Source: a plasmid. Taken from it: DNA of 64,000 nucleotides. The translations under genes were made by a program, and so were the position numbers. Below are positions 3,413-63,290 of the stretch, one piece after another. A model generated the notes under the pieces. It saw only the letters and a list, made by a program, of their open reading frames with translations. It ran no database searches and was not told the DNA's origin. The DNA lies in assembly GCF_055900595.2 (NCBI RefSeq), contig NZ_JBVWEU010000003.1; one strand, written 5' to 3'. The stretch's first letter is position 1. Each line of letters begins with the position of its first letter.

Positions 3413-4128
3413 GCGCACGTTCACGGGCACTGATCCCCCTCAGCGCAGAACAACAGGCCGCCATGCAGGCTGTGGCTGTCACCGAACAACGTCGTCGTCA
3501 GGGACGCACACTTTCAGCATGGCCTTATGCCAGCGCTTTCTTTCGCTGCCTGAATGGCAGTCGCCGGATTTCGCTGACCGATCTCCGCTTTTTTGCTCCT
3601 GCGCTGACGAAGGAGGAATTTCATGGCAACCGTCTCCTGTGGCTGGCTGCCGTGGATAAACTGATTGAAAGTTTTGGTGAAGTCTGTGTTCTTCCCCTGC
3701 CATCCGATGCGGGGCACCGTCTGTTCCCGTCCGTTCCTTTTCGTGAAGGTGAGCGTCGTCGTCAGAAAACCACGCTGACAGAGCAGAAATACAGCCGCCA
3801 GCGGGAACGTGAGGCAGAACGACGGGAACTGGAATACCAGACATGTTTTGCTCAGGCGCAGATTGACCTTGCGTTTCATACTCCCTCCACGGTCGGAAGC
3901 TGGTTGTCCCGCTGGTCTGGTGTTGTTGAGGAGCATGATCTGGAAACGATTTTCTGGGGGTGGTGCGGGCGTTTTCCGTCACTGTCATCATTTGACCGTT
4001 TTTTCTGGCAGGAGGAACCACTCTGGCGGCTGATTTTTGAAGCCGGTGAGGCCGGTCGTGGTGCACCGGTACAGGTACGTGCACTTGAGCAGTGGATGAT
4101 CCCGAACAAGCTGGAGAACGTAATATGA
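3409..4128 (+). CDS. psiA: Plasmid SOS inhibition protein A
   Basis: 239 aa; start overlaps the psiB stop (ATGA); matches PsiA N-terminus (MSARS.ALIPLS.EQQAA...[19 protein letters not shown]). Confidence 0.95.
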
Positions 4129-4721
4129 TGAAATCAGACGAAAAATACCAGGTTCCCGCGTGGATGCGACCTCTGTTGCCGTTGCTCTGCAACACCGGGG
4201 AGAACGATCCGGAAGAACTGCTGAATGATACAGAAACCACTGCCAGTGCGAATGTTGTCCGTTATGTACTGATAGTTGCAGTGCGGTCGCAGGTTGATCT
4301 GCTGCAGCTTCTGTACAGGAAAGGGCTGTTGCGCACAGAGATACCAGGTGGCTTTTCACCGGAAGAAGCGCAGGAACTCCTGGATAATCTGGTGCGCAGC
4401 CATATCAGCAGGGCGCTGTCGGGTGAGCGAATGGCAGCCCGTGACAGGAATGCCGATCTGGCCTGGATTCGACAGCAACTGGTCGATGCCGCCTGGTTTG
4501 TCCGTGCCACACTGGAAGCGCATGGGATGAGCGTCGGAAATGAGAGTCCCCCTGCTCAGCCGGAGACAATGCCGGACATACAGACACGGGAACTGGTGAT
4601 GTTGATCAAGCGACTGGCATCATCGCTGAAAGCGGTGAAACCGGACAGTTGTGTGGTGCGTGAAGCGCAGGACTGGCTGCGCGACAGAAAACTTGTGAGC
4701 ATCACGGATGTTCTTCGGTGA
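4125..4721 (+). CDS. Hypothetical leading-region protein
   Basis: ATG overlapping the psiA stop (TAATATGATG); about 199 aa, acidic, no recognisable motif. Confidence 0.5.
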   Translation: MMKSDEKYQVPAWMRPLLPLLCNTGENDPEELLNDTETTASANVVRYVLIVAVRSQVDLLQLLYRKGLLRTEIPGGFSPEEAQELLDNLVRSHISRALSGERMAARDRNADLAWIRQQLVDAAWFVRATLEAHGMSVGNESPPAQPETMPDIQTRELVMLIKRLASSLKAVKPDSCVVREAQDWLRDRKLVSITDVLR

Positions 4722-5686: not shown

Positions 5687-6024
5687 TTTACTCCCCCGCT
5701 CCGGCGGGGGTATGGCCTGCCGGGCCGCCGGAAAACCCTGGCAGGCTTACGCCTGCCTGAAATGCAGGAGGGCCGCGCCTGCGGCGCTGCCCTTCCTGCC
5801 CGTCATGGTGTGAGGCATTTTTCTGTTATGTCGTTTCTGTTGTTCTGATTTCCGGAGGCGGGGACACCCTTCGGCTCCCGGCTGCCTGGCGGCATCCGGT
5901 CGTCAGGCCCGACTCCGACAGGCAGCTGCTGGCGCACCCGCCAGTCTCCGCCGAACCCGCTGGCGCGGTTTCGGGCTGCCGCTACGGTCCGATGTCTGAA
6001 AAACCAGGCCTGCAGCGACCGTTC

Positions 6025-6400
6025 CGGTCGCGCCGCCCCTGTCGCGCCGGAAACGGCGCTCCCTGCACACCTGACGGTGTGTAAGGCCACTGCGCCTGAT
6101 GGCGCAGTTGTCTGCCCTTCCGCCGCCACCCCTGCGGCCTGTTTCCCGCTGTGGACTTTCCGGGGGCTGAAGCGGCCACAACACGTTTCAGCCGTCCAGG
6201 GGAGAGATGTACCAGCCACAAAACTTTTTGCCGCAGGCGTCAAAAACTTTTGCGTCTGCCCCCGGACAACTGCCCCGTGCCGTGGCAGTCGCTGCCCCAT
6301 CGGAAAGGTCCACTGCGGGGAGAAACCCCGAAGAAGTGGACGGCAGAAGGGGCTTTCGCCCCTCCGGGGAATAACCGGTCGGCCCGGCGACCTGATTCAG
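6025..6400 (+). promoter_or_regulatory. ssi/Frpo-like single-strand promoter element (repeat copy B)
   Basis: About 370-bp GC-rich non-coding element, near-identical in blocks to 8895-9255; several short hairpins (ACACC-TGAC-GGTGT, CTGCGCC-TGAT-GGCGCAG, GGGGC-TTTC-GCCCC); directly upstream of a + strand gene block. Confidence 0.6.
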
Positions 6401-6417: not shown

Positions 6418-6852
6418 ATGACAGTCAGCAGCACGATTTCCGTTTTTTGCCGAGACGGGGTGTTCCGTACCGTTTACTGCCACCTGCACGGTGAGCCGAC
6501 CTGGAACGGTCGCATCCTGCATACCCACTATGCCACCGGTCAGCTGGCCGAAGCCCTGGTTGAACACGGAGATATCCGTTGCCTCGGTCCCCGTTGCGAC
6601 AAACCCGCCGGGCATACGCTTCAGAACCCGGTGGACGGTGTGACGGCTTATTACGGACGTGACAGTGGTTTCCGGATGGACAGTGAAGCGCGTGAGTACC
6701 GCTCTTTCAGGGAGGCTATTGCCACTGAAAGCACAGAAGAGGTGCGCTTCCATTATGTGTTCATCGACGGCTACTGGAAGGTGATGTACCGCACGCCGGA
6801 AGGCTGGAAGATGAAAGCGCTCGCGCTGGCACTGCGTCGCTGTCCGGAATGA
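6418..6852 (+). CDS. Hypothetical leading-region protein (first gene after ssi copy B)
   Basis: 144 aa from ATG 6418 with GGAGA RBS; Cys/His-rich N-terminus (CRDG...CHLHGE...C..PRC); no family recognised. Confidence 0.55.
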   Translation: MTVSSTISVFCRDGVFRTVYCHLHGEPTWNGRILHTHYATGQLAEALVEHGDIRCLGPRCDKPAGHTLQNPVDGVTAYYGRDSGFRMDSEAREYRSFREAIATESTEEVRFHYVFIDGYWKVMYRTPEGWKMKALALALRRCPE

Positions 6853-24840: not shown

Positions 24841-25418
24841 TCTTTTTTCTCCGTTTTCGGGGGATACAGGATGTCTGGTACGCGATGACTGAGTGATTCC
24901 GGCAGCGGAGCCAGCGGGAAACACTGGAAGCGGCGCGTGATCCATCCCTGACGGTTACGGTTATCGATGAGCGTGAAGGTACGACGCTTCACGCGTTTCA
25001 GTGTCGGGGTGTCGCTTTCCATGACCGGCCAGTCTCCGGCTGTGAGTGCCGGTGTGCCGGGGACATCCGGCCACAGCCAGGTGTTGTCAGACATCAGCGC
25101 AGTGAGTGGTGCGGGCAGAAGCCAGTGAATGACATGCTGTATATCAAAAGGCGGTCGCTCCGGCACGTTAACCTGCCAGGTGGCCGTTGTAATCAGCGTG
25201 CCTGTCTCTCCGGGCAGGGCCAGGCGAATACCACTCATCTCCCCGTCAGCCCGTCTGTCACTGGCAAAAATGACCCGGGGATTGGGGGACGGTCGCAGTG
25301 TGAAGCAGGCGGACGGCAGGGTGAAGCTGAAACTGTCACCGTCCACGCGCAGCGTTTTCAGGAAGACCTGTCCCCGTGCAGGACGCCGGCAGCGGGGAGT
25401 GATGTGTATGCTGTACAT
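24801..25418 (-). CDS. traV: TraV-position protein
   Basis: 205 aa ORF between traW and traU; start coupled to the traU stop; assigned by position only. Confidence 0.5.
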   Translation of the reverse strand: MYSIHITPRCRRPARGQVFLKTLRVDGDSFSFTLPSACFTLRPSPNPRVIFASDRRADGEMSGIRLALPGETGTLITTATWQVNVPERPPFDIQHVIHWLLPAPLTALMSDNTWLWPDVPGTPALTAGDWPVMESDTPTLKRVKRRTFTLIDNRNRQGWITRRFQCFPLAPLPESLSHRVPDILYPPKTEKKECKDNLQPHCLHS

Positions 25419-41142: not shown

Positions 41143-41899
41143 GTGTTTTCAGGCGGCGGACGCGATCGCCAGTGATGAGTTTTTGCCCGTTGCCGGTAAC
41201 CGTCTGCATCTGCTCTGTGACATCTGGACGTGTGATCATGCCCTGACGCCACAGAAGGGCGTAAAGCATCATGCCCCGGTAATCACGGGTCAGGCGCTTC
41301 TGATTAGCTTCCAGTGTGAGATCTGCGTTGAGGCGCCCTTCCTGCCATCCCTGACGTAAGGCGTTTTCCCATAGTCTGCGTTGTGCCCGGTCTTCCGGCA
41401 CAACCCGGCCTTCAGTGCCTGGTGTGGCGGTGGTTGAGAGTCCTTTCAGCAGCCAGTCACGCCATCCAGGTGGATTACTGACAAAGCGTTCCGGGCGGAG
41501 GATGGTCCAGACACGGGAGGCTGTTCTTATCTGGTCCGGTCTGATGTGTGCAACATCCTGCGCTTCATCGATAACAGGAGGCAGCCAGCCTTCCTTGCTG
41601 ATGAGAGGCCGGAAATCATACAGGGCATTCAGGGTACTTTCCCGGGCATTCAGTGCCTGAATCAGTTCCCATGAGCGCTGTGCTTTTCCACCACGGAATC
41701 CCAGCGTTCTGCCGGCATCCGTGAGCATCTGACGACGGGTATCTGAAATACCATCATCCTGGTTGCCGGAGGGCGTCAGCCATGCACGGATATCCGGGGG
41801 CGGTGCGTTTTCTGTCATGACGGCAGAAGAACGGTGATGCTGTCCGGCACAGCCTGTAAGCAGGAGAGCAGACAGCAGGAGACACAGGTGTGTTTTCAT
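41063..41899 (-). CDS. traI: TraI (DotD-like lipoprotein)
   Basis: 278 aa; lipoprotein signal MKTHLCLLLSALLLTGCAG. Confidence 0.75.
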   Translation of the reverse strand: MKTHLCLLLSALLLTGCAGQHHRSSAVMTENAPPPDIRAWLTPSGNQDDGISDTRRQMLTDAGRTLGFRGGKAQRSWELIQALNARESTLNALYDFRPLISKEGWLPPVIDEAQDVAHIRPDQIRTASRVWTILRPERFVSNPPGWRDWLLKGLSTTATPGTEGRVVPEDRAQRRLWENALRQGWQEGRLNADLTLEANQKRLTRDYRGMMLYALLWRQGMITRPDVTEQMQTVTGNGQKLITGDRVRRLKTHAEFTLQKSRWRPLVSTEGEKNDITR

Positions 41900-42348
41900 T
41901 TTTTCTCCGGCGTCATAAAAGACAGATGTAAACGCCCGGCTGACTGCGAGAGTGTTGCCCGCCAGGCAGTCTGGGCTTCAGTGAGACGAAGGACATCAGC
42001 AAAGGTCATGTCGCGGACGTGCAGTGAGACGGGTAAGGGGAGACGGACGCCGCTGTAGCTGAACTGCTGGCCGCGCAGACGGGCCAGTTCGTTGAGCAAT
42101 TCCAGGGCATCGCCTTCCCAGTCAAAGGAAACACGGTCGCTGTGAGCCTTCAGACTGCCGCCGGACTGACGCTCCGGAAGGGCTGCAGAGTAAATTCCCT
42201 GCCCCCATAGCTGATACTGCGCATGCCGGGCGACGGCGACATCAGAGGCAGCACCATACTTTCTGGTCGGAGCTGTATTATCCGGGGGGAGATGGCAGCC
42301 GTTCAGGCAGAGTACGGCGAGACATCCCGCAGGTATCATACGGTTCAT
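41896..42348 (-). CDS. traH: TraH lipoprotein
   Basis: 150 aa; signal MNRMIPAGCLAVLCLNGCH; start coupled to the traI stop. Confidence 0.7.
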   Translation of the reverse strand: MNRMIPAGCLAVLCLNGCHLPPDNTAPTRKYGAASDVAVARHAQYQLWGQGIYSAALPERQSGGSLKAHSDRVSFDWEGDALELLNELARLRGQQFSYSGVRLPLPVSLHVRDMTFADVLRLTEAQTAWRATLSQSAGRLHLSFMTPEKK

Positions 42349-42706: not shown

Positions 42707-43909
42707 TCAGAATGTGAACTGCAGTTGTGCAACGGCACCGTAGTTGTTGTCTGTGCCTGCTATACCCGCCACATCAATATGGACGACATCAAATGGTGAG
42801 ATACCCAGCCCGGCGGTGAACGCACTGCCATCATTGCTGGCCAGATTCTGGCGGTAGCCTGCACGTAACTGTGCCCATTTCCAGGCATTAAATTCAGCAC
42901 CAATGGCAGCAAACTGACGTTTACTGTCTGATGTGAAGCCACTGGCCGGGGTCAGGTCAACATCCAGTGCTGTAGTGAACATGTCGTTGTGCCAGGAGAC
43001 ACCGGCAGTCACCTGCGGGCGGATCCTGAAAGTTTCAGTGACACCATGTACCTCTTTGGTCTCAATGCTGCGTGGGATCAGGTTTTGTGCGACCAGACCC
43101 AGCGTCCAGTTGTCATCCAGGTCCATGCTGGCACCGATATCAGCGTTAATACCGTTTTGGGTGTTGTGGTAACGGTTACCTTTGAATGCGCTGCTGTCAT
43201 AGTTTTTGATCAGCGTATTGTAGTTAAACAGGTCAACACGCTGGAATTTTGGTGTGAAGCCCAGTGACCATTTTTGTCCGGCCGTTTCCAGTTCAGTGGC
43301 CAGCGCAACGCCCACATCGGTGATCAGTGCGGCACGGGCAAAAGCCTGTGAGGTCAGTCTGTTTTTATCCACATCCTGGCTGCCACTGTCTGCAATGCTT
43401 TCCAGATAGTTCAGGTCGGCATCGCTGACTTTACCGTCGACGCTGACAGTCCCGAACGTTTTCAGCATCAGTGCAGCAGCGAGGGTATCACCGGGAAGGG
43501 CCGCCACAGCAGATACCCCGGCCTGTGCGCTGGCATGGGTGTTCCGGAAGTCCTGCAGTCTCTCTTTCAGGCGGGCCGCTGTCTGCGGTACCCCGGAGTG
43601 GCTGTCGACGGCACGGTCGAAGGCTTTCCAGTCATCGCTGATTTTGTCGGCGTTGTCGGCGATATTACCCGGATCGGACAGCTGCGCACCCACGGACGGA
43701 AGCAGAAGACTGAAGTCATCTTTTGCACCGGATTTTGTCAGCAGTGCCGGGTTTGCCAGTGGGGCCACACCATAGTGAGAGGAGGCTACCCCGGTTCCCC
43801 CCATTGCATCATTGCGGGCTTCAAAATATGAAGTTGCGGCTGTTGAATTAAAGGAAAATAAAACAGCAGATGCGATGAGAGTTCGGGTAATGTGCATATT
43901 CATCATCAT
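42707..43909 (-). CDS. traF: TraF-like outer-membrane beta-barrel protein
   Basis: About 400 aa from the Met cluster MMMNMHIT; signal peptide; C-terminal ...AQLQFTF ending in Phe, typical of OM beta-barrels. Confidence 0.65.
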   Translation of the reverse strand: MMMNMHITRTLIASAVLFSFNSTAATSYFEARNDAMGGTGVASSHYGVAPLANPALLTKSGAKDDFSLLLPSVGAQLSDPGNIADNADKISDDWKAFDRAVDSHSGVPQTAARLKERLQDFRNTHASAQAGVSAVAALPGDTLAAALMLKTFGTVSVDGKVSDADLNYLESIADSGSQDVDKNRLTSQAFARAALITDVGVALATELETAGQKWSLGFTPKFQRVDLFNYNTLIKNYDSSAFKGNRYHNTQNGINADIGASMDLDDNWTLGLVAQNLIPRSIETKEVHGVTETFRIRPQVTAGVSWHNDMFTTALDVDLTPASGFTSDSKRQFAAIGAEFNAWKWAQLRAGYRQNLASNDGSAFTAGLGISPFDVVHIDVAGIAGTDNNYGAVAQLQFTF

Positions 43910-43998
43910 TTCAGTTTCCTGGTTTGAGGTGTTTTGGGTACAGCAACGGTATGACACGACTGTGCCATTAAAAATTTACTGGTTTTTTCTCTGCGTTA

Positions 43999-44820
43999 TT
44001 ACCAGGGTAATAACGGTATACTGAATAACTCAGCAGGTAATATTTTTCCTGTCATCAGATATTCTGCCTGTGCCGGACGAAGCGTTACGGTCCGGACGGA
44101 TGTCTTTGCATATAAATTGCGGGCAGTGTGAAACCAGTTTTCTTTTTCCTTATTCATTCTTACAGGTGATAAAGAAAGTACAGGATAAATGATGGCTTTA
44201 TTAATTTCTTTTTTCTTGCGGAACAGTACACCGCAATATTCCTGTGAATGAACACCGGCAAAAGGAAAACTGTGCCAGATAATAATATCCACATTATCGC
44301 TGGCTGAAATAAGCTGGCAGAACGCATCCTGTGTTGCTGGCCACTCACCGGCACGGCTTAAAGGATAACGTACCCTGCCGTTCAGCCATTCCGGGTTGAG
44401 ATAAAACCAGTCAGCCAGAGCAGTCAGAATCTCTCCTGTCAGATAATCTGCGAGTTTGTCCGGGTCACGGAAAACGGCAGGACGGATATTCCAGGGAGCC
44501 AGTAACGTTGTCATCGTTGTTACGCAGACATCATGTGCCTGCATGATGTGTTCTGTCCGGCAGATAAGACGGTGAACGATGTTTTCAGCCGGGAGAAACA
44601 TTTCAGTTAATGCATCTTCGACCAGGATACGCGTCAGGTCGGATACAGAAAGGGAGAGTTGCTCGCTCATTATTCCGAGTGCTTCTCTGACGCCCTGCGG
44701 ATAACGGATCTGCAGGGGAGTGGACTGCAACTGGCGGTTATTGAGCAGAGCTTCGCTAATCCGGGCCCTGTCAATGGAGAGCATCATGCGGGCAGCAATG
44801 CCTGTGCTGTTGGGTTTCAT
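43999..44820 (-). CDS. traE: TraE-position protein
   Basis: 273 aa; last tra gene before the rci/shufflon/pil block; positional assignment. Confidence 0.55.
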   Translation of the reverse strand: MKPNSTGIAARMMLSIDRARISEALLNNRQLQSTPLQIRYPQGVREALGIMSEQLSLSVSDLTRILVEDALTEMFLPAENIVHRLICRTEHIMQAHDVCVTTMTTLLAPWNIRPAVFRDPDKLADYLTGEILTALADWFYLNPEWLNGRVRYPLSRAGEWPATQDAFCQLISASDNVDIIIWHSFPFAGVHSQEYCGVLFRKKKEINKAIIYPVLSLSPVRMNKEKENWFHTARNLYAKTSVRTVTLRPAQAEYLMTGKILPAELFSIPLLPW

Positions 44821-45070
44821 TTCACCTCCGTGCGGTTCATATGTTAAGTCTAAAGAGCGTGTTTACTGAACGGAAACGAGTTATTTCGATCGTTATGATC
44901 GAGTGTGTTTCAAGAGTGCTTTTAACTCTGTTTTAAGCGTGAATGAAAAGGATTCGGACAGGACGTGATTTAGCATGCCGCTGGTCTGGCATTATGCTGC
45001 AGAGCAGACGGAGTCAGGAGATTGAAGGGCGGTACAGTCTGCGAAGACTGGACACGGGGTGTGTCGGGAA

Positions 45071-45616
45071 TTAACGCACGTGAGGCGTAATGAGAACGAC
45101 GCGTTTTTCGCTAGCTCCACCTCCGGCGAATCCATTCATGACAAGGGACTGTTCCGGTCTGAGAGAAATGCTCTGCTCAACAGTCTGGTTTCGTTTCTGG
45201 TCTGTGGTCGAGAGTCGCAGAGTGATATTGCCCCCCTTAATATCCGGCGATATCTGCATTCTGACATCGGGGGATACATCAGCAGTAAAGGCATCCGGAC
45301 CTACGGATGTTACCTGTGATTCAACACAGGACGTATTCTGCATCATCCCGTGGAGCGTTTCAGGTGTCAGCGTCAGGCTGTCATTAAAAAAAGCACTGTG
45401 TGAAATGACCCCCTGAGCATCGGCAAACAGGTCCGGATGGCGCTCATTAAGAAGGCTTCCGTATTTTTCCGCCAGGCAGATTGGGTTGCTGGCCGTTGTG
45501 TCTGTTCGCACGGTATCGACCGTGAATGTCACCTGCGGGTGATGTTCCCTGTGGCCTGTGCAGCCGGACAGCAGTGCGGCGGCTATCGTCATCCAGAGTA
45601 GTGGTTGTTTTTTCAT
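45071..45616 (-). CDS. Hypothetical lipoprotein
   Basis: 181 aa; signal peptide with lipobox (MKKQPLLWMTIAAALLSGC). Confidence 0.6.
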   Translation of the reverse strand: MKKQPLLWMTIAAALLSGCTGHREHHPQVTFTVDTVRTDTTASNPICLAEKYGSLLNERHPDLFADAQGVISHSAFFNDSLTLTPETLHGMMQNTSCVESQVTSVGPDAFTADVSPDVRMQISPDIKGGNITLRLSTTDQKRNQTVEQSISLRPEQSLVMNGFAGGGASEKRVVLITPHVR

Positions 45617-45734
45617 GCTGTTAATTTCCTCTCAGGGTAAAAAGAAAGACTCGCACCGTCATGTCAATGGTAAGCGTACAGCCTGAACCGTCTGGTCAGA
45701 ATCTGACGAATTAGACATAGGGGCAAATCCATGT

Positions 45735-46046
45735 TTATTTTGCATCCATCATCTCGCCCATCAGCAGTCGGATACGCTGCCAGGTGTCATGATCCAGTAC
45801 AGGTGATGGTATTACCATGCAACCACTGTGCCCGGTAGCGGCGGCAGAAAGCATGGCTTTAACTTCGTAGGCATTGCCAGTAAGGATAACCCTCCCCGTC
45901 AACCCCAACACTGAGTTGGCGTGAATTGGTGGTGTGAATTCGATTTCGTTAATGTCCCGGCCAGTTAGGATGCGATTATTATCCGCATTGGCAGCACGGG
46001 AGGATACGTGTTTCATAAAGAACCTCATTGCGTTAATTTTGAACAA
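45735..46046 (-). CDS. Hypothetical small protein
   Basis: About 93-103 aa; no family recognised. Confidence 0.45.
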   Translation of the reverse strand: MFKINAMRFFMKHVSSRAANADNNRILTGRDINEIEFTPPIHANSVLGLTGRVILTGNAYEVKAMLSAAATGHSGCMVIPSPVLDHDTWQRIRLLMGEMMDAK

Positions 46047-46056
46047 AATTGTTTGC

Positions 46057-47226
46057 TCAGCAAGGGGATGTGAGAATAGTGGTTGATTTTGTCATAAGCT
46101 GGTCGTTTGTTAACGGACAAATCATTACCCGTTCATCAATGTTTGTAGGAAGTTCGCCAGGAGTTGGGACACGCTCTCCTCGCTGGGCGGCTTGTGCCAG
46201 TGTTCGTAGCAGCAACACGCTGGCATGAAATATGGCCTGTTCTTTTGTGGCTGCGCTTGTTTCCAGGTCGAAATCACTCAGAGTCACAACGACTTGCCCG
46301 TTTCTGTTCTCGACCGTTGCCGGGTAGGGAACAAAATAGGGAGCGATTTTGCTGGTTTGCTTGCGTCGGGCATCGAGTTTACTGACAAGTTGATAAGCCC
46401 GAAGGTGTGTGTATCGTTTCAACATGTTCAGGGAGCGATGGCCTGAAATAGCGGCAACTTCAATGACATTCAATGTACCAAGTTCGAAAAATCGGCTGAT
46501 AGCCTCATGACGGAGGTCATGAAAATGCAAGTTTTCTATATTCAGTTCCTGAAGTGCTGTTCGCCAGGCACTTTTGAATCCCGAAGATGTATAAGAAAAA
46601 ATATTACCGTTAAGCTGTATTGGCAGCATTTGCAGGTAACTACGGGCTTTCCTGGATAGCGGAACATCGCGTGGAGCACCATTTTTGGTTGTTGGAAGAT
46701 GAGCTACCCCATGTTGCAGATCGACGTGTTCCCAACGCAATGACAAGATTTCACCTTGTCGCATTGCTGTTTCCAGCGCCAGATTAAAAATGACGTAAAG
46801 AGCCTGGTTTTTTTCTTTGAAGTACCGGGAAAGTCGGCGTTCTTCTCCTGAAGTCAGGCGACGATCGCGCCCGCTACTGATTTTGGGTTTTCGGACCAGT
46901 TCAACAGGATTCATACGGCATGTTCCCCATTCCACACGGGCGATATTGAATAATGATGATAAAAGGGCAAGTTCAAGACGGACGGTATTTCCGGTGATTT
47001 GACGCCCTGTTCGTGGGTTAATTTGAGCTAAACGCTGATCCCGGTAACCGGCGATATCAATGGTAGTGATTTCATCCATGTAGCGCTCGGCTATAGGGTG
47101 ACGTTTAATCACATTGACGCGATAAAACTCCTGTAGATGACCTTTTTTGTGGATGGATACTGTCTTCAGGTATTTGTCCAGCGCCCGGTTGAGAGTCATT
47201 TTGCGAATTTTTATTTTTCGAAACAT
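46057..47226 (-). CDS. rci: Shufflon-specific tyrosine recombinase Rci
   Basis: About 389 aa from [23 protein letters not shown]; tyrosine recombinase core ([11 protein letters not shown]...GH...LKRYTHL); matches R64 Rci as recalled; abuts the first sfx repeat. Confidence 0.9.
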
Positions 47227-47288: not shown

Positions 47289-48612
47289 GTGCCAATCCGG
47301 TTCGTGGAAAAATGCAGGAAAAGGCGATATTGAAATCGTCAAAGTAACAGCATCAAAATTCCGCTGGCCTGGTGCTACTGCCACCTGCCCAATGGGTAAG
47401 AAGGTGATCGGGGGTGGTGCAGAATGCAGCTCTGGAATTGGCTTTATCTGGCTTGTCCGTTCAATACCTGTAAACAATAATGCCTGGTATGGCTATTGCG
47501 ATACGACAGAACACATCATTGGAAAAATAACTGTACATGCCATTTGCCAATGACAAAGTGATTTACTGGCAAACCACAATGTAACTACATTTCCCCGTCA
47601 GGTCGTTCCTGTTTGTACCGCCGTGAAAATTGTATTCATCGTAGTAACCACACTTCACAATCCTGTTCGAATCATATGTCGCAACAGAACCTGCGAAGTA
47701 ATTTGGCTTCCAGCCATGCGGGTTTTCAGCATTGCTGACGCTCCAGGTACACTGGCTGGCAGAAAAACCAGACGGCAAAGGTAGTCGTTCTCCATTTGCG
47801 ATTTTTCCTGTCAGAACAGTGCTACCTGATACCCTAATCCACGAACCGGATTGGCACTGGCCTCCGTGCCAATCCGGTGTGTGGGTTGGCTTTGAATCCT
47901 ACCCTGTGGGAAGCCCTATCCCGTGGCCATCTGCCACTCCTCCACAAGGCTATCTGTTGATGAACGGCCAGTCGTTTTCCTGTTCCCGGTATCCTCAGCT
48001 TGCCCGTGCTTATCCTGGCTGTAAATTGCCCGATCTGCGCGGTGTTTTTATCCGTGGCTGGGATAACGGGAAGGGACTTGATGGTGATCGGAACAGACAA
48101 CTCCTGAGTTATCAGGCCGATCAATCAGGCGTCTATCACGAACGTGGCGGATGGCTGAAAGGGCATCATAGTGGTATGCCATACTGGGCACAGGGGAGTA
48201 CCACAGAAATGCGTCCCAAAAATATTGCATTCAACTACATTGTTAAAGCCAGCTAGGGACTCACATCTGATAGGCATACACAGAGAAAACACCGTTACCA
48301 CAGGCGTAATTTTGTGTTGGTCTGGAGATGATTTGATATGACGCTCCCACTGGCACGGCAAATGAAATAAATGCTGTCTTTCCGTAGGAGGGGTTATTGC
48401 TGGCATTCATACCAATGAAAGCGCCGTTCACATAGCCCTGAAGATTTGATGTGTTGGCGCAATCACCGCCACCGGCACCATTTCCACCGGAAGCGTACAC
48501 AAACAAAGTTCCTCTGCCGTTATTTCTCCCGTTAAATGTTCCCCGGTGAGAACCCAGATTGCTGTAACTTCCGTCAGGTGCACCAATCGTTCGCCACACA
48601 CCGGATTGGCAC
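47289..48612. other. Shufflon: two invertible segments bounded by four 19-bp sfx repeats
   Basis: sfx repeats GTGCCAATCCGGTTCGTGG at 47289-47307 (+) and 47839-47857 (inverted), GTGCCAATCCGGTGTGTGG at 47866-47884 (+) and 48594-48612 (inverted); alternative PilV C-terminal ORFs on both strands (47281-47553 +, 47563-47778 -, 47732-48256 +). Confidence 0.85.
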
Positions 48613-49595
48613 GAAAGTATTGCCCCTTTACTGTCGCGGCCTACAAGTCCGTCCGGTGAGCAGGAAGTACCTGCGGTGGCTGTTTTATCCAGCTGTAAAT
48701 ACTCACCCGTGGAAAGACGCCCCTCAGACCGGACAGTTCCACCACTGACTTTTCCTCCTTTGAGCTCTCCTTCGGTTGTGATCCCTTTGTTGTTAACAGC
48801 ACGTATCCATTGGCTGTCCGTCATGGTGAAACCGCCTCCGTGCGTCGTGTTCATCCACCCCTTGTTGTTTCTGGTGATAAGCCAGCCGTCTTCGCTGGTT
48901 ATATCGCCTTTCACCGTGGCTTTCTGACCATTGAGGTTACCGGCGTTATTGATGTCATTTCCGCCCATGTTGATAGCTGTGTGCATCTGGTTCAGCTCTG
49001 ATCTCCCCGGGACCTGGAAACGATACAACCTGTCGCTTTCCTGCAGATCATCACCCGTCATGACGACGGCAATGTGACCTGCCGAACAGGTGAGTCCGTA
49101 ATCCCCCGGTTTGTCTGTCCAGGCGCCGAATGCGCCGGTTGCTGTTCCGTTTTTACCAATATAACCACCCAGCCCGGGAAGCTGTCCTGCCACACTGCGC
49201 AGACCATCTTCTTTGATATTCTGCCCCCCTGTTGAGCAGGTCAGGGCTTCAAGACGTCCTGTAGTCTGGTTACGGCGGATACCCGTGATATAACTCTGCC
49301 CAAACGGAGAATGATTAAATCCCTGTTTCAGGTATCCCTTGCGAATCAAATCATCGGCTGTAAAGTTTGCCGGAAGGCTGCCGTTGTGCAGAGTGGCATT
49401 GTTATCGGCAATGTAATTTCTGGCTGCGGTATTGTAGGCATCTGCATGAGAAGCAGCACTCTGGTAAAGCTGTTCATTCAGCCAGTTTTCTATTTCGGAA
49501 TAAATCAGCGGCGTGGCGATACCAATCACTATCAGTCCCGCCAGTATTTCAAGCAGAATAAAACCTTTGTCGTCATCGTGTCTGAACTTTTTCAC
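48261..49595 (-). CDS. pilV: PilV thin-pilus adhesin (minor type IV pilin) with shufflon-encoded C-terminus
   Basis: 444 aa; prepilin-like N-terminus GFILLEILAGLIVIG; ORF crosses the sfx at 48594-48612 into the current segment B. Confidence 0.9.
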   Translation of the reverse strand: MKKFRHDDDKGFILLEILAGLIVIGIATPLIYSEIENWLNEQLYQSAASHADAYNTAARNYIADNNATLHNGSLPANFTADDLIRKGYLKQGFNHSPFGQSYITGIRRNQTTGRLEALTCSTGGQNIKEDGLRSVAGQLPGLGGYIGKNGTATGAFGAWTDKPGDYGLTCSAGHIAVVMTGDDLQESDRLYRFQVPGRSELNQMHTAINMGGNDINNAGNLNGQKATVKGDITSEDGWLITRNNKGWMNTTHGGGFTMTDSQWIRAVNNKGITTEGELKGGKVSGGTVRSEGRLSTGEYLQLDKTATAGTSCSPDGLVGRDSKGAILSCQSGVWRTIGAPDGSYSNLGSHRGTFNGRNNGRGTLFVYASGGNGAGGGDCANTSNLQGYVNGAFIGMNASNNPSYGKTAFISFAVPVGASYQIISRPTQNYACGNGVFSVYAYQM

Positions 49596-57139: not shown

Positions 57140-58759
57140 TCAGATGATATTGGGCGTGATCAGCACCACGAGAATGGTGTCGTCGTTTTCACTGTTGATC
57201 CCACCGCCAAGACCGAAGAATCCCGGCGTGCCTACACCCTGTTTTCCGCTGCGACGTCCTGACTGCTGGAAGCCACTGATAATGACCGTCTGCCCGGATT
57301 TCAGATCCACGGTCTGATTGATGGTTTTCAGATCCACATTCGGCAGCTGGGCTTTACTTCCACCGCTTTCATAATTCTCAATAACCGGTTTGTCGGAGAG
57401 ACTCATGGAATAGAGCAACTGCAGTGTCTGTGAGTCCGGGAGAATGAACGGCAGAAGGGTCATGTTAAAACCGGTGGTGATGGTGGCCGCATTCAGGGAG
57501 GTGGATGAGCCGACATTGGCAGTGGTATCCGTCGTCACACTCTCGATGTAACTCTGCTGATTGGCGATCTGCATTGGCACCGGCGTCAGGTTTTTGGTGA
57601 CGGCAGAGTGCTGGGTCACCACACTGACAACCCCCTGGGAAGACAATGCTTTCAGGAAGGCTTTTGAACCGGTGAGTTTACCGTCCACAATGGAAACACC
57701 ACCTGTGATGGCATCACTGGCTGCACTGGTGAATGTGCTGCCGAGACTCAGTCCCAGCGTTCTGTCGCTGAAGACTGCGTTCCAGTCGATACCGGCCTGC
57801 TCATTGCGGGTTTTCCGGATACTCAGAATTTCCACATTCAGCACCACCTGACGTTTCATCTCTTCATTGCGTTTTTCAATGAATGCCCGGACCGTTTCCA
57901 GAACCTGTGGATTATCTGTGACGGTTATAAAGCCCGTGGACATGAACATGCGTCCGATACCCGGGGTCAGCATTGATGTGACCGCATTTTTCACATCCTG
58001 ATACAGCGCAGACTTCATATCCACGGTGGTGGTCTGGGTATTGCTGGCATCACCGGAAATGGCATCTGATGCACTGCCTCCTGATGAGCCGTTTGAGGAC
58101 ATGGTGCCGCTGACCACAGTGGCGTTATAGGTCACCTGACTGTCCATATAGGTGATGGGGAAGGTCTGTGTCTCGAGATAATAGAAGATGATATGCGAGC
58201 CGTCATAGCGCCAGGATATACCGAGACGGGAGGAGACCGCATTCAGCAGGGTCGTCAGGCCGGAGGCATTCAGTTCAGACAGTGCTGCGGTATTTCCCGG
58301 CAGACGGGATGATGGCGTGTCAGATGCGCCAATGGCGGCAAGGGGAACCATGCCGCTTGCATCCGGTGGGGGTAACGCGCCCTGGATTTGTTGTGTGCTG
58401 CCGGTTGTGGATGTATTCAGGTATGTCAGTACATCAGGTGTGATCCGTACAGGAATATGGCAGCTTTCCGTGATCCGCTGAACCACCTGCTGAAGGGTGA
58501 TGCTCTGACGGGTATGAATGACAATGGGACAACCGGGAACGGTTTTGCCGGTGTTTTTATCCATGACCGGACGGGGATTGATCCATTGTCGAGAGGATTC
58601 CTTAACAACCGGCGTCCGGGTTCGCAGATCAGACATCATTTCCCGTGCCCGTTGTTGTTCCGCAACGGCTTCCTTTCTTGTGCTCTCAAGCTGTCTGTAA
58701 CTGGCACAGCCCTGTAACAGAGCGGCGGCAATCATAATGGCAAGAATTTTTTTATTCAT
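57140..58759 (-). CDS. pilN: PilN secretin lipoprotein
   Basis: 539 aa; lipoprotein signal MNKKILAIMIAAALLQGCAS; secretin-like C-terminal domain. Confidence 0.85.
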   Translation of the reverse strand: MNKKILAIMIAAALLQGCASYRQLESTRKEAVAEQQRAREMMSDLRTRTPVVKESSRQWINPRPVMDKNTGKTVPGCPIVIHTRQSITLQQVVQRITESCHIPVRITPDVLTYLNTSTTGSTQQIQGALPPPDASGMVPLAAIGASDTPSSRLPGNTAALSELNASGLTTLLNAVSSRLGISWRYDGSHIIFYYLETQTFPITYMDSQVTYNATVVSGTMSSNGSSGGSASDAISGDASNTQTTTVDMKSALYQDVKNAVTSMLTPGIGRMFMSTGFITVTDNPQVLETVRAFIEKRNEEMKRQVVLNVEILSIRKTRNEQAGIDWNAVFSDRTLGLSLGSTFTSAASDAITGGVSIVDGKLTGSKAFLKALSSQGVVSVVTQHSAVTKNLTPVPMQIANQQSYIESVTTDTTANVGSSTSLNAATITTGFNMTLLPFILPDSQTLQLLYSMSLSDKPVIENYESGGSKAQLPNVDLKTINQTVDLKSGQTVIISGFQQSGRRSGKQGVGTPGFFGLGGGINSENDDTILVVLITPNII

Positions 58760-60423: not shown

Positions 60424-60819
60424 ATGATAAAGAAGATGTGGCGTTATTTACGGCAAATTGATAAGTATGAATTGCTGCAGCAGGTGATTTCAGTACATGA
60501 AGTGGAACTGCTCAGGAAAATGATGACAGATTCATTATTAGGGTGCTCAGTAGGATATGTGTTTTCGAAAATACTGAAGATATCCTTTCTGCGTTTTATT
60601 CAGTCTGAGGGGGGATGGGATATTATTACTTACTTTTTGTGGATGCTGGGAATACTTATTGTCATGGTCGCGCTGTTTATCTGGATGTGCGCCGCTGTAT
60701 GCTATGAGCTTCGGATGTATAAAATAAAAACAGGAAGGGAGAACGATATATTATTCTGGGTGTGGATTCTTCTTTTTGATGTCGCGGTTGTATTTTCGCT
60801 GGGTAATGTTATCTGGTGA
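60424..60819 (+). CDS. Small membrane protein on the + strand, convergent with the next ORF
   Basis: 131 aa; two C-terminal TM helices; long ORF in roughly 40 percent GC DNA, so unlikely to be chance; stop codon abuts the stop of the 60820-61251 ORF (TGATTA). Confidence 0.5.
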   Translation: MIKKMWRYLRQIDKYELLQQVISVHEVELLRKMMTDSLLGCSVGYVFSKILKISFLRFIQSEGGWDIITYFLWMLGILIVMVALFIWMCAAVCYELRMYKIKTGRENDILFWVWILLFDVAVVFSLGNVIW

Positions 60820-61251
60820 TTATGGGTTCAGTGACATATGGAAAAAGATAAGTGCGAACATTGATACTGAAGAATAATATATCCAGGAATAGAAAAACAT
60901 GAATTTCGGAGATGGTTTCTTCTGTCTCCTGTTTTTCAGGGGAGTCTGTGGGTCAAATGTTATCAGCGTCATTAAAGGATACCCTTTCATAAGAATAAAA
61001 ATATAGACGCATAAATGAGCGTAAAGAGGTAACCTGTCCTGCCAGAACAGAATCATCATGATGACGGCAAGATGAAATGTCGTTACATTGATATAATAAA
61101 ACCAGCTGTATTTACGCAGATACTGTTGGATATTCACGCTGTCAGCATGCGGTTCTGGTGAACAATTTATGCAAAAACAGAAGAAAGAAATGATGATGAA
61201 CACGGTCAGAGTGACCGGTAATACAGTCACAAGCAGAAAGAGTATGGACAT
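60820..61251 (-). CDS. Small polytopic membrane protein
   Basis: 143 aa, four predicted TM helices, AT-rich; occupies the pilK/pilJ position upstream of pilL, but homology is not recognisable. Confidence 0.5.
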   Translation of the reverse strand: MSILFLLVTVLPVTLTVFIIISFFCFCINCSPEPHADSVNIQQYLRKYSWFYYINVTTFHLAVIMMILFWQDRLPLYAHLCVYIFILMKGYPLMTLITFDPQTPLKNRRQKKPSPKFMFFYSWIYYSSVSMFALIFFHMSLNP

Positions 61252-61323: not shown

Positions 61324-61704
61324 TTATAATTTTATCCGGGACCTGGCTTTAAGGGGTAATGCCACCTCTTTCCATTCACTACAGCTTCCGGGAATACGTT
61401 CTGTGCGTCGTATTATTCGTGTGTTCTGGCATACAATAATCAGGGCATTGTCTGCCGTCTGAAAAGGCATAATCGCAATGTTAATATCTTCTGTTGCCGG
61501 GATACAGATGACTTTCTTTTCACATGTATTGGTGTATATGACAACTCTGAATTTTTCTGCGGACATTTTCAATCCTCTTTTAAACCAGAATATCCCGTGA
61601 GGGCATTCTTTGTGAAAAAGTTCTGTGGACTTCTCTATGACGGCAGGTAATGCATCCAGCAGGGCAAGACGGAAGCGGAGGCTGGTCTGCTCATCCGAAA
61701 GCAC
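61324..61704 (-). CDS. Hypothetical protein (pilI/traD position)
   Basis: 126 aa; no motif recognised. Confidence 0.45.
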   Translation of the reverse strand: MLSDEQTSLRFRLALLDALPAVIEKSTELFHKECPHGIFWFKRGLKMSAEKFRVVIYTNTCEKKVICIPATEDINIAIMPFQTADNALIIVCQNTRIIRRTERIPGSCSEWKEVALPLKARSRIKL

Positions 61705-61842
61705 GTTAATGGCATCGTTCAGTGCGCGCTGTGCTTCTGCTTCTGCCAGACCTTTCTGACGGGTGGCCTCCGCCAGTTCAATAATTGCTGCTGCCTGGAG
61801 AAGTCAGCGGAGAGTGGCTGCTGTTGTGGCTGTCCCGGTATT

Positions 61843-62508
61843 TCAGTGTAACAGGTGATTGCTGTGATCTATGCCCCATTCGGCTTTCGGTAAACCTGAA
61901 TGCCCCACATGAAGAATGCGTGACAGCATGTTTCTGCCGCTGCCGTTCAGGCTGCATTCGCGTCCGTGCGCGAGTATAAAACCTTCATCCCGGAATATCT
62001 CTTCCACTTCTGAAGATTCGAGGGATGCCGGATGAATTAATGAAAATGCCACCGGTCTGAGCATTCTGCCCGTGGTGGAAAAGGTGTCTCTGGTACTGTT
62101 CAGCTGCAGGATATGACGTTTACCTGTTTGCGCACGGGAAAGTGTCTCACTCAGCAGCTGGTCGTTCCATGCGCACGTGCCAATCTGCCATCCCAGACTT
62201 CGGCACGCGGAAAGAGCCGAGCGGAAGCGGTACAGGTCGTATAATGCTGCGTTATTGCCACTTTCCAGCAGTGATTTCAGCGTATTTGCTACCGGTATGT
62301 CCGTATTAGTGGCCAGCAGTTTTCGCAGAGTCGTAAACTCTTCTGCCATTCCTCTGAACTCGCGCATCTGACGGGCAGTGTCAAGCCAGTTCAGCAGGTA
62401 ACGCCGGCGACGCCGTTCGTTGTTTATGTTGTCCGGGGCGGTGGAGAGTGCTTCGAGCATATTCTCCAGTAACAGAATGACAGGGTTTTCCTGGGATAGA
62501 ATGGTCAT
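61843..62508 (-). CDS. traC: TraC-position transfer regulator
   Basis: 221 aa; immediately downstream of the NusG-like traB; positional assignment. Confidence 0.5.
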   Translation of the reverse strand: MTILSQENPVILLLENMLEALSTAPDNINNERRRRRYLLNWLDTARQMREFRGMAEEFTTLRKLLATNTDIPVANTLKSLLESGNNAALYDLYRFRSALSACRSLGWQIGTCAWNDQLLSETLSRAQTGKRHILQLNSTRDTFSTTGRMLRPVAFSLIHPASLESSEVEEIFRDEGFILAHGRECSLNGSGRNMLSRILHVGHSGLPKAEWGIDHSNHLLH

Positions 62509-62648: not shown

Positions 62649-63290
62649 TCATGTCAACGCTCCGTCATCAGATACCAGGTGCAGGAGCAGGGCGATCCTC
62701 GACTCCGGCAGAGGCTGTGCATCAAGCCGGAGGAGGTACTGGTAACGCGCTTTTGTCAGCCAGAGGGTGGAGGCAGCATCCAGCTCCTCCCTGGCTGCCG
62801 GATTGAGCGCAGGATCCGGGTACACTTTCATTAAAGACTGAACGATATCCTCCCTGACGGTTTTGATTTCACCGGCCATTTTCACGAAGCCCAGAAAGGC
62901 ACTGTGACGGCGCAGGTGAGTGAAAGCGTGGCGTTCGGGGTCTGCTTTCAGGAAGAAGTAACCGGGAAACACGGCGTGTATATGTCGACGGTAACCACAG
63001 ACTTTATCCGTGCGGCGGACTTTTTTCAGTATCAGGGGTGTCCAGGGAAGGACGTGTTGTTCGGAAAGCCAGGAAAAGAGATGTTCGCGGTTTTTGCCGG
63101 CAGGGATGTACTGAGCCAGATACCAGTTGCGTTGATGTAATTCACTGATATTCAAAATCCGGAACGCTCCGCGAAAATCGATCCCCGCAGGGGGGCTTCG
63201 ATGTTGTTGTGAACGGCGAATACATAAAGCATGTGTCGGAAACAGCGGCTGACCCACGTTCAGCCCGGCCTGCAGTTCTGACAGGCACAT
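62649..63290 (-). CDS. traB: TraB, NusG/RfaH-like transcription antiterminator
   Basis: NGN-domain motifs (WYLAQYIPAGKNREHL..., HAVFPGYFFLKA); first gene of the - strand transfer regulon in this window. Confidence 0.7.
   Translation of the reverse strand: MCLSELQAGLNVGQPLFPTHALCIRRSQQHRSPPAGIDFRGAFRILNISELHQRNWYLAQYIPAGKNREHLFSWLSEQHVLPWTPLILKKVRRTDKVCGYRRHIHAVFPGYFFLKADPERHAFTHLRRHSAFLGFVKMAGEIKTVREDIVQSLMKVYPDPALNPAAREELDAASTLWLTKARYQYLLRLDAQPLPESRIALLLHLVSDDGALT

Follow-up and report, generated by a model that had tools for sequence, protein, structure and literature searches.

A relocated lipoprotein gene with probable remote likeness to secretins in a mosaic slot between rci and traE of an IncK2 plasmid

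R64 is the reference thin-pilus system. IncK2 and IncI1 plasmids count among the major carriers of blaCMY-2 and of genes for extended-spectrum beta-lactamases (ESBLs) in poultry and in humans, and the thin pilus of these plasmids determines the range of recipients in liquid mating. The secretins of the type IVb class are themselves lipoproteins and do not need a pilotin, and each protomer of the secretin BfpB contributes four strands to each of two barrels (PMC12531336). The locus described here belongs to a 64,000-nucleotide stretch of plasmid DNA (contig NZ_JBVWEU010000003.1 of assembly GCF_055900595.2), called the window throughout, which is part of an I-complex conjugative plasmid of type IncK2. 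Two minus-strand genes lie in the window between the shufflon recombinase gene rci and traE: a gene for a 181-amino acid (aa) lipoprotein (45071–45616) and a small open reading frame (ORF) of 93 aa (45735–46016). This interval, in which the thin-pilus/shufflon genes border on the tra genes, serves as a mosaic accessory slot, and the two genes that it holds are unrelated. The explanation that accounts best for the data, in which we place somewhat better than even confidence, is that this slot received a relocated cassette whose lipoprotein is a remote homologue of secretins and acts as an optional accessory of the thin-pilus secretin PilN.

The initial annotation, made from the letters alone, had reported two minus-strand ORFs between traE and rci, the larger coding for a lipoprotein, and both are present. 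The larger product starts with MKKQPLLWMTIAAALLSGC-TG: a textbook signal peptide ends in the lipobox LLSGC with Thr at position +2, leaving a mature protein of 162 aa. The criterion applied was a signal peptide ending in [LVI][ASTVI][GAS]C followed by a residue other than Asp at +2. The LSGC motif is unchanged in all 14 aligned full-length members of the family, and four members give sub-threshold matches to Pfam LPAM_1. From the Thr at +2, sorting of the lipoprotein by the Lol system to the outer membrane is predicted. The signal peptides of the lipoprotein (45545–45616, minus strand) and of the PilN encoded in the window (58691–58759, minus strand) are alike (M.IAAALL.GC, 50% over 24 aa), which is weak evidence of kinship because lipoprotein signal peptides are of low complexity.

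Members of the lipoprotein family (that of WP_072674828) are few. A word-indexed search of 5.8 billion proteins returned 35 clusters, and when a profile was run against 1.84 billion representative proteins, just 19 matches came back; all named matches from both searches are from Enterobacteriaceae and are annotated as hypothetical. The sole large match of the profile search, P0043 (1105 aa, nine repeats), was set aside as a Thr/Ser-rich repeat protein whose match is probably compositional. Searches of NCBIfam and PHROGs gave no match for the lipoprotein, for the small ORF or for the opposite-strand gene that the cassette displaced (see below). A diverged branch of 211 aa, 44–49% identical, is found in about 380 plasmids of IncI2 size (about 60 kb), one of which was opened and typed as IncI2. 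The family as a whole is a narrow orphan one that is restricted to plasmids of the I types (I1, Iγ, K2/Z and I2).

The place of the gene in the window is not its usual one. In IncI1 and Iγ plasmids the order is traC–lipoprotein gene–pilI, and in the window the corresponding spacer (61567–61842, minus strand) is empty; no second copy of the gene was found within the window. In the IncI2 plasmid pJIE2288-1, the homologue follows VirB-like type IV secretion system (T4SS) genes and two EexN genes, and is itself followed by relBE, trbM/kikA, pilL and pilM. The mating-pore types of these plasmids differ (MPF_I in IncI1, MPF_T in IncI2), and the type IVb thin pilus, the shufflon and rci are common to both. 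In I1, Iγ and I2 plasmids, the pil genes have the lipoprotein gene at their upstream edge, whereas in the window it stands at the downstream edge of the pil–shufflon–rci block. Because it keeps to an edge of the pil genes on both MPF_I and MPF_T backbones, the gene travels with the pilus module and not with the T4SS. A role as a pilus accessory had been suggested in the initial annotation, and it gains indirect support from this synteny on two unrelated T4SS backbones and from the remote homology to PilN and BfpB described below.

In the traC–pilI slot, the lipoprotein gene is flanked by 108-nucleotide direct repeats that are 87–93% identical and 714 bp apart (5943–6050 and 6657–6764 in the IncI1 record L002; 3896–4003 and 4610–4717 in the Iγ/K1 record L014). 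These repeats may account for the patchy presence of the gene among IncI1 plasmids. R64 (L017, NC_005014) retains a vestige: the last 26 nucleotides of the gene (CTCATTACGCCTCACGTGCGTTAA), coding for ...LITPHVR and the stop codon, and its 3′ flank lie between traD and pilI (at about 25083–25349, minus strand). An ancestor of R64 therefore had the lipoprotein gene and lost most of it. The initial annotation could not place the gene pair in the R64 gene order, and the pair indeed has no place there: the rci–traE spacer of R64 is 150 bp long and free of genes, and tblastn of both proteins against the entire R64 sequence finds neither. The plasmid pESBL has no gene between traC and pilI (transposon-sequencing gene table, PMC4288162).

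The position of the IncI1 orthologue between traC and pilI suggests that the lipoprotein might be R64 TraD, which fills the same slot there as the lipoprotein gene does in other IncI1 and Iγ plasmids. TraD of R64 is not known to be needed for transfer. Direct comparison with R64 rules this identity out, since R64 TraD (WP_000776428.1) is a 188-aa membrane protein unrelated to the lipoprotein, and BLASTP gives no alignment between the two (E 66). In pYUAHMCS11-1, a genuine homologue of TraD shares the space between traC and pilI with an ORF of 92 aa and with the lipoprotein gene; two 193-aa genes of this plasmid that had been considered as tandem paralogues are unrelated to each other, one of them being the TraD homologue. 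The traC–pilI interval is a cargo hot spot (61567–61842 in the window; 11935–14276 in L003; 1084–2550 in L015; 25350–25916 in L017), which is empty in the window, holds traD in R64 and carries a pair of genes for a flotillin and an OB-fold (NfeD-like) protein in the IncK2/Z plasmid pLS45-2.

The lipoprotein gene of the window is part of a cassette (45027–45669, minus strand) that includes 53 bp on the 5′ side of the gene and 44 bp on its 3′ side and shows 93.6% DNA identity to the traC–pilI cassette of hundreds of IncI1 plasmids. The nearest allele of the gene itself (97.8%) is found at traC–pilI of the Iγ/K1 plasmid RCS74_pI. Sister IncK2/Z plasmids have a different gene between the small ORF and traE, an AT-rich, opposite-strand gene for a hydrophobic protein of 106–111 aa (3913–4233, minus strand, in L006; 4242–4577, minus strand, in L008). 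This membrane-protein gene is absent from the window lineage, where the lipoprotein gene stands in its place. Both ends of the cassette can be located. On the traE side, homology to the cassette stops inside the 108-nucleotide repeat, at a TTC (minus strand) that is common to cassette and backbone (45024–45026 in a three-way comparison of the window, L006/L007 and L002). Beyond this junction lies the conserved traE upstream sequence (44821–45023, minus strand), which is 99% identical in cassette-free plasmids (H9; L006/L007) and partly kept in R64. The roughly 250 bp of non-coding DNA noted on the traE side in the initial annotation (44821–45070) thus consists of this upstream region and the 3′ flank of the cassette (45027–45070). 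On the rci side, the homology stops 53 bp upstream of the ATG, where GTAAGCGTACAGCC... begins at 45670.

The sequence that begins there is the end of an insertion sequence (IS). Positions 45670–45717 (GTAAGCGTACAGCC...TTAGACA) agree at 48 of 48 positions with the left terminus of IS66-family elements that four unrelated plasmids carry as intact copies. These copies are annotated as ISEc8/IS66 family (ISEc8 in pO157-type plasmids), and their flanks diverge immediately before GTAAGCG. The remnant lies on the plus strand at 45670–45723, of which 48 bp match exactly and at most 54 bp are probably IS-derived; the backbone restarts 11 bp from the stop codon of the small ORF. This terminus is present once in the window. 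Like the left terminal inverted repeat of ISEc8, the remnant starts with GTAAGCG; unlike ISEc8, it is without tnpA, tnpB and tnpC, without a second terminus and without an 8-bp target duplication. To judge from this match, a copy of ISEc8 once abutted the cassette and was afterwards truncated, and its adjacency to the cassette is consistent with the element having mediated the move. In the scheme proposed here, the 0.64-kb cassette would have moved in the IncK2 lineage from upstream of the pil genes into the rci–traE spacer, where it would have replaced the opposite-strand gene for the 106–111-aa membrane protein. The move would have involved an ISEc8-like element, which left 48–54 bp of its end behind, and a junction at 3 bp of microhomology.

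Three independent record counts of the lineage coincide: 58 records have the full arrangement, 57 have a lipoprotein allele at least 99% identical and 56 have a small-ORF allele at least 99% identical. This agreement points to a single event fixed in the IncK2 lineage, whose sources include a clinical isolate, chickens, food and a barnacle goose. Relocation and IS scar together are ordinary plasmid mosaicism. The initial annotation had treated the two genes as a pair. Both ORFs are real, and they are not a functional pair: their histories are separate, and an IS remnant lies between them. Instead of lying at the same position with an assigned tra function, the orthologues of the lipoprotein lie elsewhere and are all annotated as hypothetical, and the same-position orthologues of the small ORF are confined to K2/Z and Iγ/K1 plasmids.

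Outside its own family, the best remote match of the lipoprotein is the secretin of the thin pilus, and within the window PilN comes closest to its C-terminal region. In the window, PilN is a type IVb secretin lipoprotein (57140–58759, minus strand; phmmer to BfpB, 9u5s, E 1.6e-38). The C-terminus of the lipoprotein (QTVEQSISLRPEQSLVMNGF...RVVLITPHVR) resembles the end of the secretin domain, as seen in window PilN (...KTINQTVDLKSGQTVIISGF...ILVVLITPNII), and the VVLITP motif is terminal in both. The family alignment gave a 21-column match in hhalign against PilN alone. Against an alignment of three C-terminal halves, those of window PilN, R64 PilN and BfpB, it gave a match of 157 columns with 94.7% probability (E 6e-8, score 54.8). 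Three of the 15 family members also match Pfam Secretin (PF00263) below threshold, the best being P0027 (residues 117–165 to profile positions 46–92, E 0.0044, 17.1 bits). When IncI2 sequences were added, the AlphaFold2 model of the lipoprotein improved to a predicted local distance difference test score of 67.6 and a predicted template modelling score of 0.63. On these comparisons, the C-terminal approximately 100 residues are quite likely to be homologous to the secretin domain. The alignment begins at residue 5 of the lipoprotein against the N3/secretin boundary of PilN, and its gaps appear to coincide with the secretin gate hairpins and the glycine-rich C-terminal loop.

Several other explanations compete with this one, and they meet different parts of the evidence. 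The likeness to secretins might be spurious, a matter of generic amphipathic beta-strands, in which case the protein would have no kinship with secretins and would be an envelope lipoprotein hitch-hiking in cargo slots. This is rather unlikely. One hundred column-shuffled controls gave hhalign scores with a mean of 12.9, a standard deviation of 2.1 and a maximum of 19.0, so that the real score lies about 20 standard deviations above them. The likeness is also specific: among 112 window ORFs of at least 120 aa, PilN is the best non-self hhalign match (30.2 versus 22.9 for the next), and TraF, another outer-membrane beta protein, scores far below it. Conserved secretin motifs occur in the right order (an RQV-type first strand; G.x.x.P.I..G.I.L; Q..v..GF; VVLITP), and three independent methods give the same family. 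If the likeness is real, the gene could still be a decaying, functionless relic of an old partial duplication of pilN. Its vestigial state in R64 and its absence from pESBL (PMC4288162) would fit such decay, as would the frameshifted alleles on record (P0003 and P0032) and the flanking direct repeats, which favour loss. Against decay, the ratio of nonsynonymous to synonymous substitution rates (dN/dS) is 0.33 relative to the traC–pilI gene of pS29-IncI1, whose product is 91% identical to the lipoprotein, and purifying selection thus acts on the gene. Across the I1–I2 divergence (44–49% identity) there is no variation in the lipobox, in two cysteines or in the ITPH motif at the C-terminus, family members are carried by about 950 plasmid records, and the gene was kept after its relocation in a successful epidemic lineage. 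A relic is accordingly an unlikely account of the gene.

Surface exclusion had been raised in the initial annotation as a second possible function. As an exclusion factor of the TraT or EexN kind, acting at the surface or at entry, the lipoprotein would block redundant matings in the envelope of the recipient. A small outer-membrane lipoprotein on a conjugative plasmid suits this role, and the gene is variable and mosaic between plasmids, as exclusion determinants often are. The sole support of a more direct kind is that in IncI2 the homologue directly follows two genes of EexN-family lipoproteins. The protein, however, matches no TraT, EexN or ExcA family in Pfam or NCBIfam even at E values up to 10, ExcA is already present on I-complex plasmids, the position of the gene follows the pil cluster and not the T4SS across I1, Iγ and I2, and the best remote relative is a secretin; an exclusion factor is thus quite improbable. 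The secretin-derived accessory of the pilus, by comparison, has to be held against a number of results that weigh on the other side. The gathering score of Pfam Secretin (27.5 bits) is reached by none of the 15 members, and the window protein itself gives no match. A HMMER profile search of PDB sequences found no match at E values up to 10, a Foldseek search of the PDB found no secretin and nothing else, and over the N-terminal 60 residues the alignment with the secretin has low confidence and is unreliable. The frameshifted alleles mentioned above tell in the same direction. The plasmids used in published transposon screens are without both genes: pMS7163B is also without the rci region, and pESBL is empty in either slot. 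As for the route of the cassette, a search of PLSDB for an intermediate, in which a complete ISEc8 would still adjoin the lipoprotein gene, found none.

With these points taken into account, the lipoprotein probably serves the PilN secretin as an optional partner. Once lipidated and sorted to the outer membrane, it would use its secretin-like beta-strands to pack against the PilN ring or to intercalate with it, and this association would modulate the assembly, stability or gating of the thin-pilus channel. The role would be optional because R64 and pESBL transfer without the gene. A search of the minus strand from rci to traE revealed neither a sigma-70 promoter nor an intrinsic terminator, so that expression at the new site probably relies on transcription that reads through from rci. 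A change from C to T, four bases away from the IS terminus, has created a TTGACA (a perfect −35 hexamer) at 45661–45666 on the minus strand, where the IncI1 and Iγ alleles have TCGACA; no acceptable −10 element to match it was found upstream of the lipoprotein gene.

The second gene of the interval has a different history. The small ORF starts 40 bp downstream of rci, with an ATG at 46016 and a GAGG eight bases upstream, which gives 93 aa; the same start is used by the Prokaryotic Genome Annotation Pipeline (PGAP) in the plasmid record that is identical over this region. Alternative starts are an in-frame ATG at 46028 (97 aa, as annotated in p4809.66) and a TTG at 46046. A second protein of about 100 aa had been expected here, and the ORF is indeed present; the length of 103 aa (45735–46046) is obtained only with the TTG start, and 93 aa is more likely. 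PLSDB has 199 records with homologues of 57–100% protein identity. The ORF lies directly after rci, or where rci would be, in each of the six contexts that were examined. These contexts include the IncK2/Z plasmids pZ1323MEC0002-2, p1106-NDM, JML285_P3 and p4809.66, as well as one IncFIB/Iγ-K1 plasmid that has lost rci. The small ORF is a lineage-restricted orphan of IncK2/Z and Iγ/K1 plasmids, with neither a signal peptide nor a family match, and its product forms only 12 clusters among the 5.8 billion proteins.

Selection on the small ORF at the protein level has left little sign. The dN/dS is 0.8–0.9 between the window allele and alleles about 60% identical, and 0.8–1.2 over all comparisons, and the 61 differences are spread evenly over the codon positions (20/22/19). 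These values, together with the few clusters and the missing family match, would be expected if the conserved DNA after rci were a 3′ untranslated or regulatory segment whose frame is open by chance, and random substitution would leave the frame open with a chance of 23%. Such a non-coding segment is the less probable of the two readings, though a serious one. All five diverged variants keep the frame open, whereas the other five frames have one to seven stops each; a 9-nucleotide indel is in frame; the GAGG before the ATG is a Shine–Dalgarno sequence; the guanine-plus-cytosine content by codon position (0.55/0.44/0.53) is like that of neighbouring genes; and N- and C-terminal residues are conserved. 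The protein-coding status of the small ORF is thus uncertain, and it is probably a fast-evolving or marginal gene.

The genes next to the slot, rci upstream and traE downstream, are those named in the initial annotation; TraF_2 and DotD/TraH follow traE. All are on the minus strand. The recombinase gene rci (46057–47226) matches Pfam Phage_integrase (E 1e-24) and is annotated by PGAP as a 389-aa site-specific integrase. The gene traE (43999–44820, 273 aa) is identified from synteny with R64 traE and from a homologue annotated as TraE, and is followed by traF (TraF_2; 42707–43957) and traH/DotD (41896–42348). At the other side of the pilus block lie traB (62649–63290), traC (61843–62508) and pilI, which ends at 61566 (Pfam PilI, E 6e-32); the genes from pilL to pilV and then the shufflon stand between pilI and rci. 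Two convergent, AT-rich ORFs for strongly hydrophobic proteins lie between pilI and pilL (60424–60819, plus strand, 131 aa; 60820–61251, minus strand, 143 aa) and occupy the place of R64 pilJ/pilK. The conserved traE upstream region contains a hairpin, TCGATCATAACGATCGA, at 44885–44903, and R64 has the same stems with another loop (TCGATCTGCATGATCGA); this palindrome may be an operator or an RNA hairpin of the traE transcript.

The segment 44821–46056 of the window is 100% identical to pLS45-2 (NZ_CP095450.1; IncK2/Z, MOBP, MPF_I). Beyond this segment, the window and pLS45-2 (L001/L003) differ in the arrangement of the shufflon (47300–49595 in the window), and hence in the C-terminus of pilV, and also in the traC–pilI cargo. 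The plasmid of the window is therefore related, and not identical, to pLS45-2. In several plasmids of the I complex, rci has been lost together with the whole shufflon (RCS90_pI, L004; pRM10466-1, L005; pMS7163B). These rci-less plasmids have about 470 bp between pilV and either traE or the small ORF, the latter being retained by pRM10466-1.

If a short lipoprotein with secretin strands binds the PilN ring, it would represent a type of secretin partner that is new and would offer a small, tractable handle on the pilotin-free assembly of type IVb secretins. The relocated cassette and its ISEc8 scar provide a clean structural marker of the IncK2 lineage, and an easily made annotation error is corrected, as many IncI1 plasmids have at traC–pilI a gene other than R64 traD. 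If the link to secretins is wrong, routine plasmid mosaicism and two hypothetical genes remain. Neither gene is discussed in the literature on IncK2 and related plasmids that was searched.

The pilotins (PulS, AspS and TadD) offer one comparison: no similarity to them in sequence or fold was found, whereas the role proposed here for the lipoprotein would be like theirs, in that pilotins too are small outer-membrane lipoproteins encoded with a secretin. Among described secretin partners, none is known to derive from a secretin. Compared with the secretins PilN and BfpB, the mature lipoprotein has 162 aa against about 520 and is without the LG, N0 and N3 domains, and it falls about 100 residues short of a secretin domain in length. 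It also differs from PilN and BfpB in being dispensable for pilus function in the plasmids that are without the gene. A tentative and still doubtful extension of the comparison is that it represents a free-standing secretin-domain protein without N-domains or gate, which co-assembles with PilN, caps it or regulates it, and which is carried by a small mobile cassette that moves between the ends of the pil–shufflon block. Set beside these systems, the protein looks moderately novel, a stripped-down secretin-like lipoprotein that tracks type IVb pil clusters on two backbones.

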